Of a stretch of 64,000 nucleotides of DNA, positions 7,828-47,859 are shown piece by piece. The notes beneath the pieces were generated by a model. It did no database searches. It was given only the letters and a program-made list of their open reading frames with translations, and was not told where the DNA came from. The DNA is from Escherichia phage EAWsc9: the sequence record PQ341120.1, one strand, 5' to 3'. Made by a program: the position numbers and the translations under genes. Every line of letters begins with the position of its first letter. Within the stretch, counting starts at the first letter, position 1.

Positions 7828-8235
7828 TTAAGCAACAACTGCCATTTGTTTGCGGATAGCTTCCGGAAGAGATTCAATATACTCTGGAAGTTGTGCAGCA
7901 ATAATAGAACCAGCTTGCACCAGATGGTCATCAGAGTTAACGCAATAATCATCTTCAAGACGTTCGGAACCGTCACGGTCGATAACCAGTTTAGCACCAG
8001 CAGCCAGTGAATCGTTATAGTGATTACGCATCAGTTCAATCCACTTATCAGATACATCAGTATCAATCACACCATACAGCATAAATTTAATTTCTTGCGG
8101 CAGAGACTGCAGACGGGTAGCAGATGCTTCATCACAGGCCAGAACCCAGGATTTACGAACACGGTTTTGGTTATGCGGGTTAGCGTCGGTGCGGATGGTT
8201 TTAACTTGGATATCTTTAGCAGTTACGTTGTTCAT
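7828..8235 (-). CDS. RpbA-like protein (by position between 45 and 46)
   Basis: ORF 7828..8259 (non-ATG start codon) trimmed to internal ATG at 8235; identity assigned only by synteny. Confidence 0.4.
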   Translation of the reverse strand: MNNVTAKDIQVKTIRTDANPHNQNRVRKSWVLACDEASATRLQSLPQEIKFMLYGVIDTDVSDKWIELMRNHYNDSLAAGAKLVIDRDGSERLEDDYCVNSDDHLVQAGSIIAAQLPEYIESLPEAIRKQMAVVA

Positions 8236-8259
8236 AATATTCTCTCTATTCATTATCAA

Positions 8260-8451
8260 TTAATCAAAGTATTCATATGCGAACCAGGCATTGTGTCTGT
8301 TCGCGATTATTTTAACATATTCTTCACCGAAAGCGTTTTGCAAGTCACGTTCAGTGACAAGGTGTTCATCTTTCGAAAAGGTATTAACTAACACATACCG
8401 TTTAATTTCAGGGACAGCCAATAAATGCTGCCCGGTTAAGAAGTCAGCCAT
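8260..8451 (-). CDS. Hypothetical small protein (45.2 position)
   Basis: 63 aa ORF, tight packing with flanking genes. Confidence 0.45.
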   Translation of the reverse strand: MADFLTGQHLLAVPEIKRYVLVNTFSKDEHLVTERDLQNAFGEEYVKIIANRHNAWFAYEYFD

Positions 8452-8486
8452 AATAGCCTCTATTATAACATCCTTGTTTTAAAACA

Positions 8487-10169
8487 TTATTCCATAACAG
8501 TGAATCGACCAACTTTTTTCATCTGGAGATGTTGTCCGTATGCTTCCGGGTCATGGTCTCGGTGACTGATGATAAAGATGTTGGTGTCTTCCAATTTGTT
8601 CAGGATGGTAGCAATTGCTTTAACACCCTCTACATCTGTGGCCGAGTCAAAAACTTCATCCAGAATCAATGTGTTAATATTAACACCAGATACTTTCGCA
8701 GCAATATCGCGCCATGTAAACAGCAATGCAATATCTATACGAGCTTTTTCGCCCTGGCTAAATGATGCATAACTAAAGTCTTCACGTCCACGAGATTTAA
8801 TCGTTTCGTTGAACTCTTCATCTAACGTAAAGCTATAATCAGCTTCCATAACTTTAAGATAAGCATTTATCTGCTTATTAAAGATAGGAATATATTTCTT
8901 AATAATCGCGCCCTTGATACCAGAATCTTTCAACATATCCGTTAGGATACCACGTTGATATTTTTCCATCACAAGGTCGGATTTTTGTTTGACTATTTTA
9001 TCAAGCTGGTCTTGAAGCATTTTAATGTCTGCTGCATGGTCAATAAATTCCGACTTAGCTTGCTCGATTAATGCTTTAACCTTTTTAGCTTTTTCGACAG
9101 TCTGGACTAAGGTTTGTTTCTTAGTTTGAATGTCTTGAGCTATTGTACGCTGGTTTTGTCTTGCCTTGGTATACGCATCAAATTGCTCTTGAACAGCATT
9201 CTGGCGAGCTTTATGCTTATCAGCTGATGCATTACATTCTTCAATCTTTGACTCAATCCTGGCGACAATAGGGTCTCCTGGATGTAACTGACTGGCACAA
9301 GTCTGACAACAACCGCCCTTCTCGTACAGACCAACAACCTTTCGGTAATCGTCAATCTTCGATTTAATCAGGAATGATTCCTGCTTTAACTTTGTGAGTT
9401 CGTGCTCGGGGTCTTCTCCCAAAATTATCTCGGTCAGTCTTGTTGTTGCTTCTTCGATAGTTGCCTTGATTCCACGTGCTTCTGTAGCAAGTTCATCATA
9501 CATCGTTTGCAGTCGCAACAGATTATCACCTGACAATTTTCTTTGACGGTCTTCGTTGTCCTGATAGATTTTAATCTGTTGAACGATACCATCATGCTGC
9601 ACATCCATTACCTGGATTTGGCTATTGACTTCGCGGATAAGAGATTTGTTCAGCTTATCCATATCGGCCAGTACAGAAACCTCTAAAAGGTCTTCGACAA
9701 GCTTTCTTCTGGCAGGAGTGGATAGGCCCATAAAAGGGGTATATCCAGCTGTGCCGAGTACGACAATTTGTTTGAAACTGGCGTATGACATTCCGATAAG
9801 CTGTTCAAATTCCGCTTGGAAGTCTTTACTGCTGGCAGATTCATCAAGACGTTTACCGCCACAAGAGATTTCAAAAACATTGGGTTTTTGCCCGCGTTTG
9901 ATATAGTATTCTTTTCCATCATATTCCATCCACAATTCAACGAGCATATCTTTTTTGTTGCTCGAGTTAATCAACTGGCCTTTCTTTACATCACGGAAAG
10001 GCTTACCGAACATAGCAAAGGTAACCGCTTCAAGGAACGTAGATTTACCCGCGCCATTCTTGCCGGTGACCAGAGTTTTCTGGACTTTATCCAGTTCAAC
10101 AGTAATCGGTTTAGCACCAACCGACATAATATTTTTATAGATAACTTTCTTAAGCTTAAACGTTTTCAT
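8487..10169 (-). CDS. 46: Recombination nuclease subunit gp46 (Rad50/SbcC-like ATPase)
   Basis: 560 aa (same as T4 gp46); Walker A GKNGAGKST, central coiled coil with CxxC hook, C-terminal signature/Walker B LILDEVFD. Confidence 0.95.
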   Translation of the reverse strand: MKTFKLKKVIYKNIMSVGAKPITVELDKVQKTLVTGKNGAGKSTFLEAVTFAMFGKPFRDVKKGQLINSSNKKDMLVELWMEYDGKEYYIKRGQKPNVFEISCGGKRLDESASSKDFQAEFEQLIGMSYASFKQIVVLGTAGYTPFMGLSTPARRKLVEDLLEVSVLADMDKLNKSLIREVNSQIQVMDVQHDGIVQQIKIYQDNEDRQRKLSGDNLLRLQTMYDELATEARGIKATIEEATTRLTEIILGEDPEHELTKLKQESFLIKSKIDDYRKVVGLYEKGGCCQTCASQLHPGDPIVARIESKIEECNASADKHKARQNAVQEQFDAYTKARQNQRTIAQDIQTKKQTLVQTVEKAKKVKALIEQAKSEFIDHAADIKMLQDQLDKIVKQKSDLVMEKYQRGILTDMLKDSGIKGAIIKKYIPIFNKQINAYLKVMEADYSFTLDEEFNETIKSRGREDFSYASFSQGEKARIDIALLFTWRDIAAKVSGVNINTLILDEVFDSATDVEGVKAIATILNKLEDTNIFIISHRDHDPEAYGQHLQMKKVGRFTVME

Positions 10170-26322: not shown

Positions 26323-27069
26323 ATGATTTTATCCGGAAGAACTGTTGATGAACTCAATGAAAAAGTCCAGGCTGCCTTGGCTAATAATTGGTATTTGTTT
26401 GGTTCTACTATGGTGTTGCCGAATACCCCTACAGATAGCAAAGAGCGTTTTTTCCAAACTATGTCCAGCTCGGAAACTCAGATACCGGGCCCGCCTGGGC
26501 CAAAAGGAGACCCGGGTGTACCAGGACCAAAAGGAGACCCAGGCGGGGATGGAAAGTCTTCTTATCAGATATGGCTTGACTTGGGAAATACAGGAACTGT
26601 TGATGATTTTTTAACTGATACAGCAGGAAAGAGGGAAAAATCCGAGGTGTTTTGGAGTGGTATAAACGTTCTATTAACTAATGGTACGACTTCAAACATA
26701 ATTAGTGTTTTAAAGGGGATTCCACCGACTGCAGGGACTCTATCTCCGTTTTTTAGAACCACTGATGATAAGTTGTGGCCATATAACCAAGACAGAAGCC
26801 TAATGTTTAAACTCAACCTTATTGGTAATTTTGCAGGAGCCTCGCAAGCTCGAAGTATAACATTAAATTTCGTTGGAACCAACGGAAACACTTATATACA
26901 GAATCGTCCGGAAAATGCTACAGATATTTTGTCTTTTACAACGTTCTTTAGCATTGATAAAGATGGGGCAATGGCAACCAATGGTACAGCTATAACTGTT
27001 ATGCCAAATGGCGGCAACTTTACAATAACCTCTGCATTGTTAGTAGCCGAACAAACAGTGACTTCATAA
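26323..27069 (+). CDS. Collagen-like repeat protein with fibre-type C-terminal domain
   Basis: 248 aa plus-strand ORF; AGGAG 6 nt upstream of ATG; eight G-X-Y triplets (GPPGPKGDPGVPGPKGDPGGDGKS) then S-x-Y-Q-I-W-L motif typical of phage fibre proteins. Confidence 0.7.
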   Translation: MILSGRTVDELNEKVQAALANNWYLFGSTMVLPNTPTDSKERFFQTMSSSETQIPGPPGPKGDPGVPGPKGDPGGDGKSSYQIWLDLGNTGTVDDFLTDTAGKREKSEVFWSGINVLLTNGTTSNIISVLKGIPPTAGTLSPFFRTTDDKLWPYNQDRSLMFKLNLIGNFAGASQARSITLNFVGTNGNTYIQNRPENATDILSFTTFFSIDKDGAMATNGTAITVMPNGGNFTITSALLVAEQTVTS

Positions 27070-27075
27070 ACAAAA

Positions 27076-27093
27076 AAGGGCCATCCGGCCCTT
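27076..27093 (-). terminator. Hairpin terminator (minus-strand sense) abutting collagen-like gene stop
   Basis: Perfect 7 bp stem aagggcc/ggccctt with 4 nt loop; A6 on plus = U6 after hairpin on minus. Confidence 0.5.
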
Positions 27094-27280
27094 AGATTGC
27101 ACTCCAAAAATTATGGAATCTTATAGTATTGATAGCCCAGTTAACAAACCCGCGAGTTTGTTTGGGAGTTGGTTTGCATATGTACTTATTGTTGATTCGT
27201 CTGCCAGTTTCCCGACAGACTGCTTCGAGATACCAGCGCCGACCTTTATTAGGTCTTCCGTATGATAAGAAGACCTTCAT
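27092..27280 (-). CDS. Hypothetical small basic Cys-containing protein
   Basis: ORF 27092..27334 trimmed to internal ATG to avoid 47 nt overlap. Confidence 0.3.
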   Translation of the reverse strand: MKVFLSYGRPNKGRRWYLEAVCRETGRRINNKYICKPTPKQTRGFVNWAINTIRFHNFWSAI

Positions 27281-27287
27281 TTCTTCA

Positions 27288-28298
27288 TTAACGATAATAG
27301 GAATTGTGGTTGTCAAGATATACCTCTTCAACAAACTTGTCCCAGAACTTCATGTCTACCTTATCAGGCATACCATTCTTAGCAGCCTGGATGGCCAGAA
27401 CTTCAACTAAATCGACAGTATCTTCAAGAAGTTCTTGAACTTCTTTAAATGGCAATTCACCAGCTTTAATCAGCTTAATGATAGAGGCTTCACGCAATGG
27501 GAATACCAAGTCACCCGTTTGGTAGATTTCCATCAATTGATACCCTGCACGATAAGCATGGCTCAGTGCTTTCCAATCAATACCTTCGTTAGCTTCTGCT
27601 TTACGAGCACGTTCACCATATTCGGCGTCGAGTTTATTCAGAGATTGCTTGAGCTCGATTAATGACAGAGTAGTTTGGTATTTACGACCGAGGACAGTAT
27701 AGAACGTTTGAGGACCTGTTTTCTCATGGTTATGAAATACCCATTCGCAGAACTCGTTTTCAGGGAGTCTGTGTTTGATATCTTCTACCTTAGTACGTCG
27801 TTGCTTAGCGGAACCATCTTCTTGATAGTCAACCCATTGTTCAGGAATCTGGTTAACAATTTCCAATACACCACGCAGTGCAGCCAATCGAGAACCTTTA
27901 ACACCATATTTGGAAGCTTGCTTACGGACGTACCCCAAATAGGCTTTCATGTTAGTTGTATAGAACCGTGAACGGTTGTCCTGAATAAACTTCCATACAT
28001 CTGGTAAATCGGATTTGACTATCAGGTCAGCCGGGGTGTGAATCATATCCAGAGCAACGGTTTCGCCATCAGCCGCCAGTTTAAAGAAATATTTCAGACT
28101 ATAAAGTTCATGGTCAACATCATCTTTTGTATTTTTGGTAGCCGTGTTATTCGTGTTCAGGTTGGTATGGTTCATCGCGGTTCCGAGCAGGATATCTCGC
28201 GGATGAGGAACAAAGATTTCTTTAAAATCGACATCAGATTCCGGGGTACTTGTTCCATAAAGATGGCTACCGAAGTAGCCTTTCATAATAGCTTTCAT
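27288..28298 (-). CDS. Putative Pol-beta-superfamily nucleotidyltransferase
   Basis: ORF 27288..28328 (non-ATG start codon) trimmed to ATG with GAGGA upstream; N-terminal motif GSHLYGTSTPESDVDF resembles the G[GS]-x9-13-DhD NTase signature. Confidence 0.45.
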   Translation of the reverse strand: MKAIMKGYFGSHLYGTSTPESDVDFKEIFVPHPRDILLGTAMNHTNLNTNNTATKNTKDDVDHELYSLKYFFKLAADGETVALDMIHTPADLIVKSDLPDVWKFIQDNRSRFYTTNMKAYLGYVRKQASKYGVKGSRLAALRGVLEIVNQIPEQWVDYQEDGSAKQRRTKVEDIKHRLPENEFCEWVFHNHEKTGPQTFYTVLGRKYQTTLSLIELKQSLNKLDAEYGERARKAEANEGIDWKALSHAYRAGYQLMEIYQTGDLVFPLREASIIKLIKAGELPFKEVQELLEDTVDLVEVLAIQAAKNGMPDKVDMKFWDKFVEEVYLDNHNSYYR

Positions 28299-28747
28299 TC
28301 TTTGTCCTCGAAGTGGATTACTGGGCACATCTTAGATTTACGAGCTTTGATATATTGAATGAAAACATTTTCTTTAATTTCCTTTCCTTCACGTTTAGCT
28401 TTAATGCGTTCCCATTCTTTTTCTTCTTTACGTAAATCGTACCAGGCCCATAAATTCATTAGACCATACATTAGACCAAATGCTACCGTCAGAATAAGAG
28501 CCAGTGTAGCTAGTCCTAAAATAAACCCTAAGCCTAAACCGACCGGGGTGCTTAATACAAAGAAATGCTCTAATACACCTGCACCCGCGACAGTTAATCC
28601 AAAAACCATACTACCGATAAAAACGGCACAAACAAAACAAGCCCAAACCATTTTCCAGAAATAAGCACACAAAGAGTGTGGACGAGAATGACGGTCATAA
28701 AAACGGTCGTGGAAACGAGCGTGCCATGAGTTTGTATTGATAATCAT
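28295..28747 (-). CDS. Hypothetical membrane protein
   Basis: 150 aa with three or four hydrophobic helices. Confidence 0.5.
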   Translation of the reverse strand: MIINTNSWHARFHDRFYDRHSRPHSLCAYFWKMVWACFVCAVFIGSMVFGLTVAGAGVLEHFFVLSTPVGLGLGFILGLATLALILTVAFGLMYGLMNLWAWYDLRKEEKEWERIKAKREGKEIKENVFIQYIKARKSKMCPVIHFEDKE

Positions 28748-28758
28748 AATAATTTTCC

Positions 28759-29319
28759 TTAAGAGTTCATAGTTGGGATAACAGAGTTCAGATAAGAGAC
28801 TAAAACTTTTAGCTCGTCCTTAGTAAATACCACTTCACTTTCGCCGTCATGTCTTTGGACAATAGATAACAGGTCACGGCCGTTATGTTGATGCACAGTT
28901 AATTCAGTATTATAATCTAGTTCCTCTTCATCGCCTTCAAACGTTTCACTAGAGCGAATCAGTGCATCTTGTCCCGGAACTTTCCATTCAACTTCCGGTT
29001 TACATTCTTCCTGGAAGAGTTTGAAAATACAATCAAAGAATTTATCAGAATCGCTAATGCTCAGGCATTCTATACCATTTTCCAGATTAAACCCATTTTC
29101 ATTTTTATAGATATAAGCGTATAGCTCATCGTTAATATCGACAGGAGCACTATTACGTCCATTGAGATAGTCAGCTCTATCCAAAACCATTAAATCATAA
29201 AGTGGTTTAATATCTTGGATAGTCAGTACGATTTTATCGTCTTCTTGGCAAAGCTCGATTGCGTTATTAACCACTTCAGCAGTCAGTTCGCCAAACAATT
29301 CAGTTGTTTCAATAATCAT
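28759..29319 (-). CDS. Hypothetical acidic protein
   Basis: 186 aa ORF. Confidence 0.5.
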   Translation of the reverse strand: MIIETTELFGELTAEVVNNAIELCQEDDKIVLTIQDIKPLYDLMVLDRADYLNGRNSAPVDINDELYAYIYKNENGFNLENGIECLSISDSDKFFDCIFKLFQEECKPEVEWKVPGQDALIRSSETFEGDEEELDYNTELTVHQHNGRDLLSIVQRHDGESEVVFTKDELKVLVSYLNSVIPTMNS

Positions 29320-29636: not shown

Positions 29637-29894
29637 TCATCTCATGCTCCTGTGCCAACAATTTCTTGGTTCACGTTTAAAAATTTCATCATGCATTGAT
29701 TGACAACCAACACAATATATCACACCTTTAATCGCTTGTCTCCGCGCTTCAGGAATTTTTTCGTCGCAGTCAAAACAGAATTCAGCAGACTCCCTTTCAA
29801 CTGCAACTTGTGCTCGTGCGTGAACGATAGCGGCTTGGACAACCGCTTCCATCTCTAACTGTTCAGCACCATCTTTTGCAAATCCAACAGCCAT
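29637..29894 (-). CDS. TraR/DksA-type C4 zinc-finger protein
   Basis: 85 aa; CFDCDEKIPEARRQAIKGVIYCVGC matches CxxC-x17-CxxC of TraR/DksA family. Confidence 0.5.
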   Translation of the reverse strand: MAVGFAKDGAEQLEMEAVVQAAIVHARAQVAVERESAEFCFDCDEKIPEARRQAIKGVIYCVGCQSMHDEIFKREPRNCWHRSMR

Positions 29895-47706: not shown

Positions 47707-47783
47707 TGGTCGGGGTGGTGGGATTCTAACCCACAACCTACGGTTTAGAAGACCGTTGCTCTATACAATTGAGCTACACCCCG
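47707..47783 (-). tRNA. tRNA-Arg (anticodon UCU)
   Basis: Hand-folded cloverleaf: acceptor 7 bp, D stem gctc/gagc, anticodon stem acggt/accgt with loop cuUCUaa, T stem gtggg/cccac, encoded CCA; unusual D-loop and T-loop (U19/A56). Confidence 0.7.
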
Positions 47784-47859
47784 GGTGGCCCCATCCGGAC
47801 TTGAACCGGAAACCTGCCAGTTATGAGCCGGATGCTCTAACCAATTGAGCTACAGGGCC
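47784..47859 (-). tRNA. tRNA with anticodon CAU (Met or lysidine-modified Ile)
   Basis: Hand-folded cloverleaf: acceptor ggccctg/tggggcc, D-loop aattggtta, anticodon loop cuCAUaa, T arm tccgg-ttcaagt-ccgga; 3' end encodes CC only; abuts tRNA-Arg. Confidence 0.7.

Follow-up and report, generated by a model that had tools for sequence, protein, structure and literature searches.

Which reaction the product of nrdC.11 carries out, and on which target, is the question raised by the locus at 27288-28298 of the window analysed here, a 64,000-nucleotide stretch of Escherichia phage EAWsc9 (PQ341120.1). A sequence-only reading had called a protein of 336 amino acids (aa) at this place a putative Pol-beta-type nucleotidyltransferase (NTase), without giving a strand. 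Exactly this open reading frame (ORF) was found on the minus strand in the ORF list and in the sequence, with an ATG start at 28298-28296 and a TAA stop at 27290-27288, and its product begins with MKAIMKGYFGSHLYGTSTPESDVDF. That reading had not recognised the gene as one already named and annotated, nrdC.11. It is virtually certain, in our judgement, that the protein is an RlaP-family Pol-beta NTase and the ortholog of T4 NrdC.11. As to function, the reading we prefer, with a probability of roughly 0.6 and by analogy with characterised relatives, is that NrdC.11 would extend the 3′ ends of damaged tRNAs by added nucleotides ahead of ligation.

The family assignment was based on profiles and on a wide set of homologs. 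The Pfam family RlaP (PF10127) matched residues 9-133 through profile positions 26-141 of 249, scoring 47.2 bits where the gathering cutoff is 23 (E 3e-12), and PHROG 388, labelled 'nucleotidyltransferase', matched over its whole length (E 1.2e-131). When 1.8 billion representatives were searched exhaustively, 3248 clusters at 50% identity had E ≤ 1e-3, and 838 of them E ≤ 1e-30; among the best 150 listed, almost every match was a full-length relative of about 305-360 aa. In a set of 131 diverse relatives with 34-53% identity, which we used to score conservation, all but one (130/131) matched RlaP. Of the families that the sequence-only reading had listed, the RlaP type was therefore the right one, while CD-NTases and antibiotic NTases gave no family match.

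The catalytic motifs hG[GS] and [DE]h[DE]h were located at 28224-28271 (minus strand) as G10-S11-x10-D22-V-D24-F25. They are present as had been claimed, although they begin at residue 10 and not at the first residue: F9-G10-S11 directly follows a predicted strand (residues 2-9), and D22-V-D24-F stands at the start of another (23-30). The sequence-only reading had been right to treat a call from this motif as tentative. Scanning the open stretches of 60 aa or more in the six frames of the window, we found the pattern G[GS]-x9-13-D-h-[DE]-h four times, against 1.1 ± 1.0 in residue shuffles, and the motif on its own is therefore weak evidence for an NTase. It is through PF10127, PHROG 388 and the wide homolog set that the call becomes solid at the level of sequence profiles. 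Residues G10, G15, S21, D22, D24, Y131, H247, R250 and P267 were invariant in the 131 relatives, and S11, D60, D62, D84, K130, R137, R230, D241, W242 and K243 were at least 90% conserved. Position 60 is D in the window protein and N in T4 NrdC.11; D60 is thus dispensable, and D62 (28113-28115, minus strand), in the sequence V-D-H of the strand at 61-67, is the likelier third catalytic carboxylate. In an hhalign comparison D62 was paired with the invariant D72 of canonical RlaP. With D22 and D24 invariant and D62 so strongly conserved, the acidic triad that the earlier call requires is present, D62 being its likely third member.

The 4 kb around nrdC.11 are 99.7% identical to Yersinia phage vB_YenM_P8 and 94% identical to Escherichia phage vB_EcoM_RZ (Straboviridae, Tevenvirinae, Gaprivervirus), and on this identity the window is assigned to a T4-like phage of the genus Gaprivervirus. 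In RefSeq records of the genus the gene is named nrdC.11 and labelled 'nucleotidyltransferase'. T4 NrdC.11 (NP_049709.1), annotated in the same way, is likewise 336 aa long, aligns with the window protein without gaps at 81% identity and shares all of the conserved residues except that at position 60. Its gene has the equivalent map place between nrdC and tk, and the nrdC-tk context that had been read from the sequence alone is correct by the T4 map and by those of related RefSeq records. The flanking genes are not the same: in T4 they are mobD (upstream) and nrdC.10 (downstream), whereas the window has a membrane-protein ORF upstream, and downstream a DUF7279 ORF and an opposite-strand gene resembling a tail needle knob. 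A tblastn search of the INPHARED collection found nrdC.11 matches in 1511 phage records, down to about 31% identity, spread over T4-like phages of Escherichia, Klebsiella, Aeromonas, Acinetobacter, Vibrio and others. The gene is conserved across T4-like phages.

Fold and family of NrdC.11 are already known, from RefSeq, from a 2006 comparative paper that assigned it as a nucleotidyltransferase under COG3541 (PMC1524935), and from a 2025 preprint by Carruthers, Fatma and Huang that names T4 NrdC.11 as an RlaP of unknown function (PMC12776372). Added here are a confident predicted model with a beta-rich insert and a helical bundle like those of HEPN and KNTase-C domains, the identification of D62 as likely third carboxylate, the observation that the NrdC.11 branch itself, and not only canonical RlaP, occurs in RtcB and Pnkp/Hen1 operons, and the frequent tandem of both RlaP types as counted in 71 loci. 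Many NrdC.11 orthologs in GenBank and UniRef, that of vB_YenM_P8 included, carry the label 'thioredoxin' (ORF109 of PP693301.1 is an example), which looks like a carry-over of the gene-name prefix nrdC. The mislabel extends to therapeutic-candidate phages and needs correcting. Neighbouring labels in the vB_YenM_P8 record are of a similar kind: nrdC.x genes appear as thioredoxin, mobD.x genes as molybdopterin-guanine dinucleotide biosynthesis protein, and the mobD.1 ortholog as thymidine kinase.

An AlphaFold2 model built from the relatives' alignment had a predicted local distance difference test (pLDDT) score of 95 and a predicted template-modelling score of 0.85. It shows the alpha/beta NTase fold of the Pol-beta-like superfamily, in agreement with the profile and conservation evidence and with what had been proposed from the sequence. 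Neither of the two outcomes that the sequence-only reading had named as refuting its call, another fold or a missing acidic triad, was obtained. The NTase core and first helices are predicted for residues 1-131 (27906-28298; strands 2-9, 23-30, 44-48 and 61-67), an extent that Pfam and hhalign support as well. Further helices follow, then a beta-rich insert at residues 154-208 (27675-27839), whose strands at 154-158, 164-168, 184-191, 195-202 and 205-208 were modelled with high pLDDT, and finally a C-terminal helical bundle at residues 213-335 (27294-27662) resembling HEPN and KNTase-C domains; all lie on the minus strand. Within the bundle lies a family-wide motif, D241-W-K243-A-x-S-H247-A-x-R250 (27549-27578, minus strand). 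The 'long helical domain' of the sequence-only reading was borne out as far as the helices go; it had missed the beta-rich insert. No other segment varies as much among T4-like orthologs as that insert, which could possibly be a substrate-specificity module.

Two further observations concern variation among the T4-like orthologs of this otherwise highly conserved enzyme. The insert occurs there in three discrete sequence types (alignment columns 150-200), one of them with two 4-residue deletions. The helices at residues 265-300 (27390-27500 covers approximately residues 267-303) occur in block-wise alternative versions, a pattern that looks like recombinational mosaicism.

The best solved-structure matches of the model were exclusively Pol-beta NTases, and the named structural neighbours in BFVD were nearly all labelled 'nucleotidyltransferase'. 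A sequence search of the PDB gave no relevant match (best E 1.6), and the crystal structure of PfRlaP was absent from the matches of both the PDB sequence search and the fold search. The nearest solved structure was the Hailong protein HalB (PDB 9dbh), which makes an oligodeoxyadenylate defence signal, and this resemblance is where synthesis or mimicry of a nucleotide signal has to be considered: a HalB-like or CD-NTase-like product would manipulate host defence, for example by keeping a Hailong-type effector off. The match has 15% identity and covers the generic NTase core, 145 of the 336 residues; HalB is 217 aa long, without the extended C-terminal region of NrdC.11, and no HalA-like partner was found at nrdC.11. 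PADLOC gave only two matches of 12-15 bits to the GS-motif stretch, the best with E 0.004, and CD-NTases were found neither among the Pfam matches nor among the top structural matches. The bacterial homologs do not adjoin effector or channel genes, and RlaP requires an RNA 3′-OH as acceptor (PMC12776372). The signalling role that the sequence-only reading had offered is not favoured by these results, and we regard it as highly doubtful.

The same structural matches included kanamycin nucleotidyltransferase/ANT(4′) (PDB 1kny and 6nlt), at about 10% identity. An enzyme that, like kanamycin and lincosamide nucleotidyltransferases, modifies a small molecule would share this fold, but no family-level sequence match to antibiotic NTases was obtained, no theme of small-molecule metabolism recurs in the gene neighbourhoods, and a lytic phage has no obvious need of such an activity. 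We consider small-molecule nucleotidylation extremely improbable.

HEPN-like bundles among the structural matches, together with the minimal NTase and its GS...DxD motif, also recall the MntA/MNT antitoxins of type VII HEPN-MNT systems. NrdC.11 might then AMPylate, and so silence, a host HEPN-type RNase toxin such as an anticodon nuclease, or modify some other protein. MntA (NF047752) reached 15.5 bits where 60 are required, over the 18-residue GS motif only; all NCBIfam and PADLOC matches were of this sub-threshold kind and confined to that stretch, and membership of known defence or toxin-antitoxin families was rejected on them. Unlike in HEPN-MNT systems, no separate HEPN toxin gene adjoins nrdC.11, and the C-terminal bundle lacks the Rx4-6H motif. 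Pseudomonas RlaP did not modify E. coli proteins (PMC12776372), and the operon partners described below are RNA-end enzymes. Protein nucleotidylation appears quite improbable to us.

How far NrdC.11 resembles canonical RlaP was judged against 14 RlaP sequences of 254-289 aa that adjoin NrdC.11-like genes in bacteria; the family is said to have been defined by Burroughs and Aravind in 2016. Three of the 14 were scanned with Pfam and gave end-to-end RlaP matches of 175-272 bits. When the alignment of the NrdC.11 type was compared with that of canonical RlaP, hhalign reported a probability of 94.9% and E 4.3e-8 over residues 1-131 only, pairing G-S with G-S and D22/D24 with D39/D41. Past about residue 131 the confidence was near zero, and the insert has no confident canonical counterpart. 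Alignments forced into the C-terminal half also had near-zero confidence, and for this reason we claim no sequence-level homology between the C-terminal domains. NrdC.11 does not correspond over its full length to the PF10127 profile, whose C-terminal helical domain is left uncovered. Because the alignment with canonical RlaP ends at about residue 131, we place NrdC.11, as far as sequence comparison goes, in a divergent branch of PF10127 with a C-terminal half of its own, rather than with the canonical type. This agrees with the sequence-similarity network of the preprint (PMC12776372), where T4 NrdC.11 (cluster 5) is set apart from the biochemically studied Pseudomonas RlaPs (cluster 1a).

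The two types have in common the G-S, the D-x-D and the third Asp, a helical domain C-terminal to the NTase domain, and, for bacterial members, RNA-repair operons. They differ in length, about 250-290 aa for canonical RlaP versus 336 aa for NrdC.11, and in the beta insert and the DWKAxSHAxR motif of the C-terminal half, which belong to the NrdC.11 type. In phages they are separate: canonical RlaP was found in 86 phage records, nearly all with genomes >260 kb and none of them T4-like, and the 1511 T4-like records carry the NrdC.11 type.

The gene context of the NrdC.11 branch in bacteria and archaea points to RNA repair. We sampled 80 bacterial or archaeal loci with genes of the NrdC.11 type at 34-51% identity, scanning one genome per species; neighbours were clustered and the clusters then confirmed with Pfam. 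Recurrent neighbours were RtcB (8 loci), Pnkp (5), Hen1 (5), Ro60/TROVE (3) and RtcA. Examples of operons are Hen1-Pnkp-NrdC.11-like-RlaP (L059), Ro60-RtcB-RtcA-NrdC.11-like-RlaP-Hen1 (L037) and RtcB-NrdC.11-like-RlaP (L065). Among 149 same-strand operonic neighbours Pfam identified RlaP in 15, RtcB in 4, the Pnkp kinase domain in 4 and Hen1_L in 3, and methyltransferase domains, including the C-terminal domain of Hen1, in 4 each; by Pfam, no functional theme besides RNA repair recurred comparably in these 149. Nucleotidylation of a target, which the sequence-only reading had named in generic terms, is by this evidence best understood as acting on RNA 3′ ends in RNA repair.

Of the loci, 71 extend far enough downstream to show the next gene, and in 15 of these a canonical RlaP gene stands immediately 3′ of the NrdC.11-type gene on the same strand. 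The canonical partner is full-length in L012, L014, L016, L023, L024, L037, L043, L057, L059, L065, L067, L075 and L077 and a fragment in L018 and L042; the pair lies at about 8000-9800 in most of these loci, and several pairs are within RtcB or Pnkp/Hen1 operons. The tandem suggests a two-NTase module with non-redundant parts. As they are found side by side, the two types are probably not interchangeable, and the NrdC.11 type may act differently within repair.

A role for RlaP in repairing 3′ ends before ligation has already been proposed in the literature, and its extension to phage NrdC.11 is an analogy. Pseudomonas RlaP adds one or two nucleoside monophosphates (NMPs) to an RNA 3′-OH, with Mn2+ preferred, favours, on a mimic of cleaved tRNA, the end broken in the anticodon loop, and is inactive on DNA and protein; it partly rescues aminoacylation of a tRNA short of one anticodon-loop nucleotide (PMC12776372). 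The anticodon nuclease RloC excises the wobble nucleotide, which was proposed in 2008 to defeat repair by T4 Pnk and Rnl1 (PMC2610378), and the idea of countering RloC has been voiced for the RlaP of jumbo phages (PMC7824862). By this analogy NrdC.11 would hold two metal ions, probably Mn2+, by D22, D24 and D62, and would move one or two NMPs from nucleoside triphosphates (NTPs) to the 3′-OH of nuclease-damaged RNA. It would act chiefly on host tRNAs severed in the anticodon loop, extending their 5′ half so that a nucleotide lost to 'nucleotide-excising' anticodon nucleases such as RloC is put back, and phage Pnk and RNA ligase 1 could then reseal a functional tRNA. The 3′-OH of the product would suit T4-type 5′-phosphate ligases such as Rnl1, which need a 3′-OH end (PMC12776372). 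In vB_YenM_P8 both partners are encoded, Rnl1 (PF09511 + PF20819) and the Pnk kinase/phosphatase (PF25109 + AAA_33). The gene would thus serve a conditional counter-defence function, a role that agrees with its dispensability under laboratory conditions, the nrdC.11-mobD.3 block of T4 being reported as deletable (PMC9825161).

The biochemistry of RlaP could also be read without repair. NrdC.11 would then tail RNA 3′ ends, for instance those of tRNAs or mRNA fragments, and so mark host or phage RNAs for decay, block their use, or regulate the processing of phage RNA. Given any of the NTPs, Pseudomonas RlaP does label numerous E. coli RNAs, rRNA and full-length tRNA among them, though an end broken in the anticodon loop is preferred to the 3′ end of the tRNA (PMC12776372). 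The locus shares its early-gene region with RNA-acting genes such as regB, and the beta insert and divergent C-terminal domain could give NrdC.11 another RNA target. The operon partners of the branch, however, are ligases and end-healing enzymes and not decay RNases, and we consider tailing outside repair unlikely. All four alternatives rest on fold-level resemblance or on sub-threshold motif matches, and each is disfavoured by the operon partners.

Several points weigh against tRNA 3′-end repair by NrdC.11. The RlaPs that have been assayed sit in another sequence cluster, confident alignment to RlaP is limited to the N-terminal 131 residues or so, and the nearest solved structure is that of a signal-making enzyme and not of one in RNA repair. 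Little base specificity was seen for RlaP, which leaves the restoration of the correct nucleotide unexplained (PMC12776372). In bacteria about 80% of the loci have no RNA-repair neighbour within 5 kb, and the frequent pairing with canonical RlaP suggests that the two types are not functionally equivalent. At the phage locus pnk and rnlA are not adjacent to nrdC.11, being about 85 kb away in vB_YenM_P8. Counted by genus, phages with Rnl1 are distributed almost as those with NrdC.11 are, but this co-distribution is weak support because T4-like phages may simply have both as near-core genes. An RNA-repair gene, Rnl1-like, Pnk-like or RtcB, was found within 6 kb in 4 of 80 viral contigs, all from divergent phages (L154, L157, L158 and L159), which is again weak support. 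The association with RNA ligases and end-healing enzymes therefore holds for the bacterial NrdC.11 branch and not at the phage locus itself.

A more specific form of the repair reading is tentative, and we would sooner doubt it than rely on it: the NrdC.11 type, with its own beta insert and DWKAxSHAxR domain and with a canonical RlaP partner in about one fifth of the bacterial loci, would be a functionally distinct second NTase of RNA-repair modules. It would be the sole type kept by T4-like phages, where it would act as the missing third enzyme of the T4 pathway of tRNA repair, restoring the wobble nucleotide removed by RloC-type nucleases so that Pnk and Rnl1 can complete the work. The T4 Pnk/Rnl1 pathway was the first RNA-repair system to be discovered. 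If NrdC.11 does restore the nucleotide, the arms race between phage and host over tRNA would gain another documented step, and a gene present in over 1500 phage records would have a function.

The local arrangement of nrdC.11 is that of a gene within a minus-strand transcription unit. A Shine-Dalgarno sequence, GAGGA (28305-28309, minus strand), lies 6 nt 5′ of the ATG, and the ATG shares the sequence ATGA with the TGA stop of the preceding ORF (28295-28297), an overlap that suggests translational coupling of the two. A longer version of 346 aa initiated at GTG is unlikely, since the listed homologs begin with MK(T/A)(V/I)(M/V)K. The co-oriented upstream ORF (28295-28747, minus strand) encodes 150 aa and is labelled 'membrane protein' in the RefSeq records of phages RZ and SP18; a Pfam scan of it found no family above cutoff. 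It fills the slot that the homing-endonuclease gene mobD has in T4.

Downstream, a small basic ORF of 62 aa (27092-27280, minus strand) begins with an ATG at 27280-27278, 7 nt past the nrdC.11 TAA, and is the final gene of the unit. It was assigned to DUF7279 (PF23945, 29 bits against a cutoff of 24.5), and the vB_YenM_P8 annotation was used as evidence for it as well. The unit putatively ends at an intrinsic-terminator-like hairpin, AAGGGCCGGATGGCCCTT, followed by a T run (27076-27093, minus strand), which was found by a terminator scan and in the sequence and is a consensus match only. A scan for sigma-70 promoters gave 15 against 13 expected in shuffles, which is no excess, and was not used.

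Convergent with this unit, and pointing toward its terminator, is a gene at 26323-27069, the single plus-strand gene within the minus-strand early cluster. Its product of 248 aa combines a collagen-like G-x-y run (GPPGPKGDPGVPGPKGDPGGDG) with an Sf6-type tail-needle-knob domain (PF16532, E 2.6e-32), which is unusual in a T4-like phage. The gene is also found in vB_YenM_P8 and RZ; SP18 and T4 lack it and have other genes at this place. Further upstream of nrdC.11 on the minus strand are a putative transcription factor like MobD.1/y05I (28759-29319; PF24449 + PF24448) and an ORF with a DksA/TraR-type C4 zinc finger (29637-29894; PF01258). The tRNA genes tRNA-Arg(TCT) and tRNA-Met(CAT) of the phage neighbour each other at 47707-47859, also on the minus strand.

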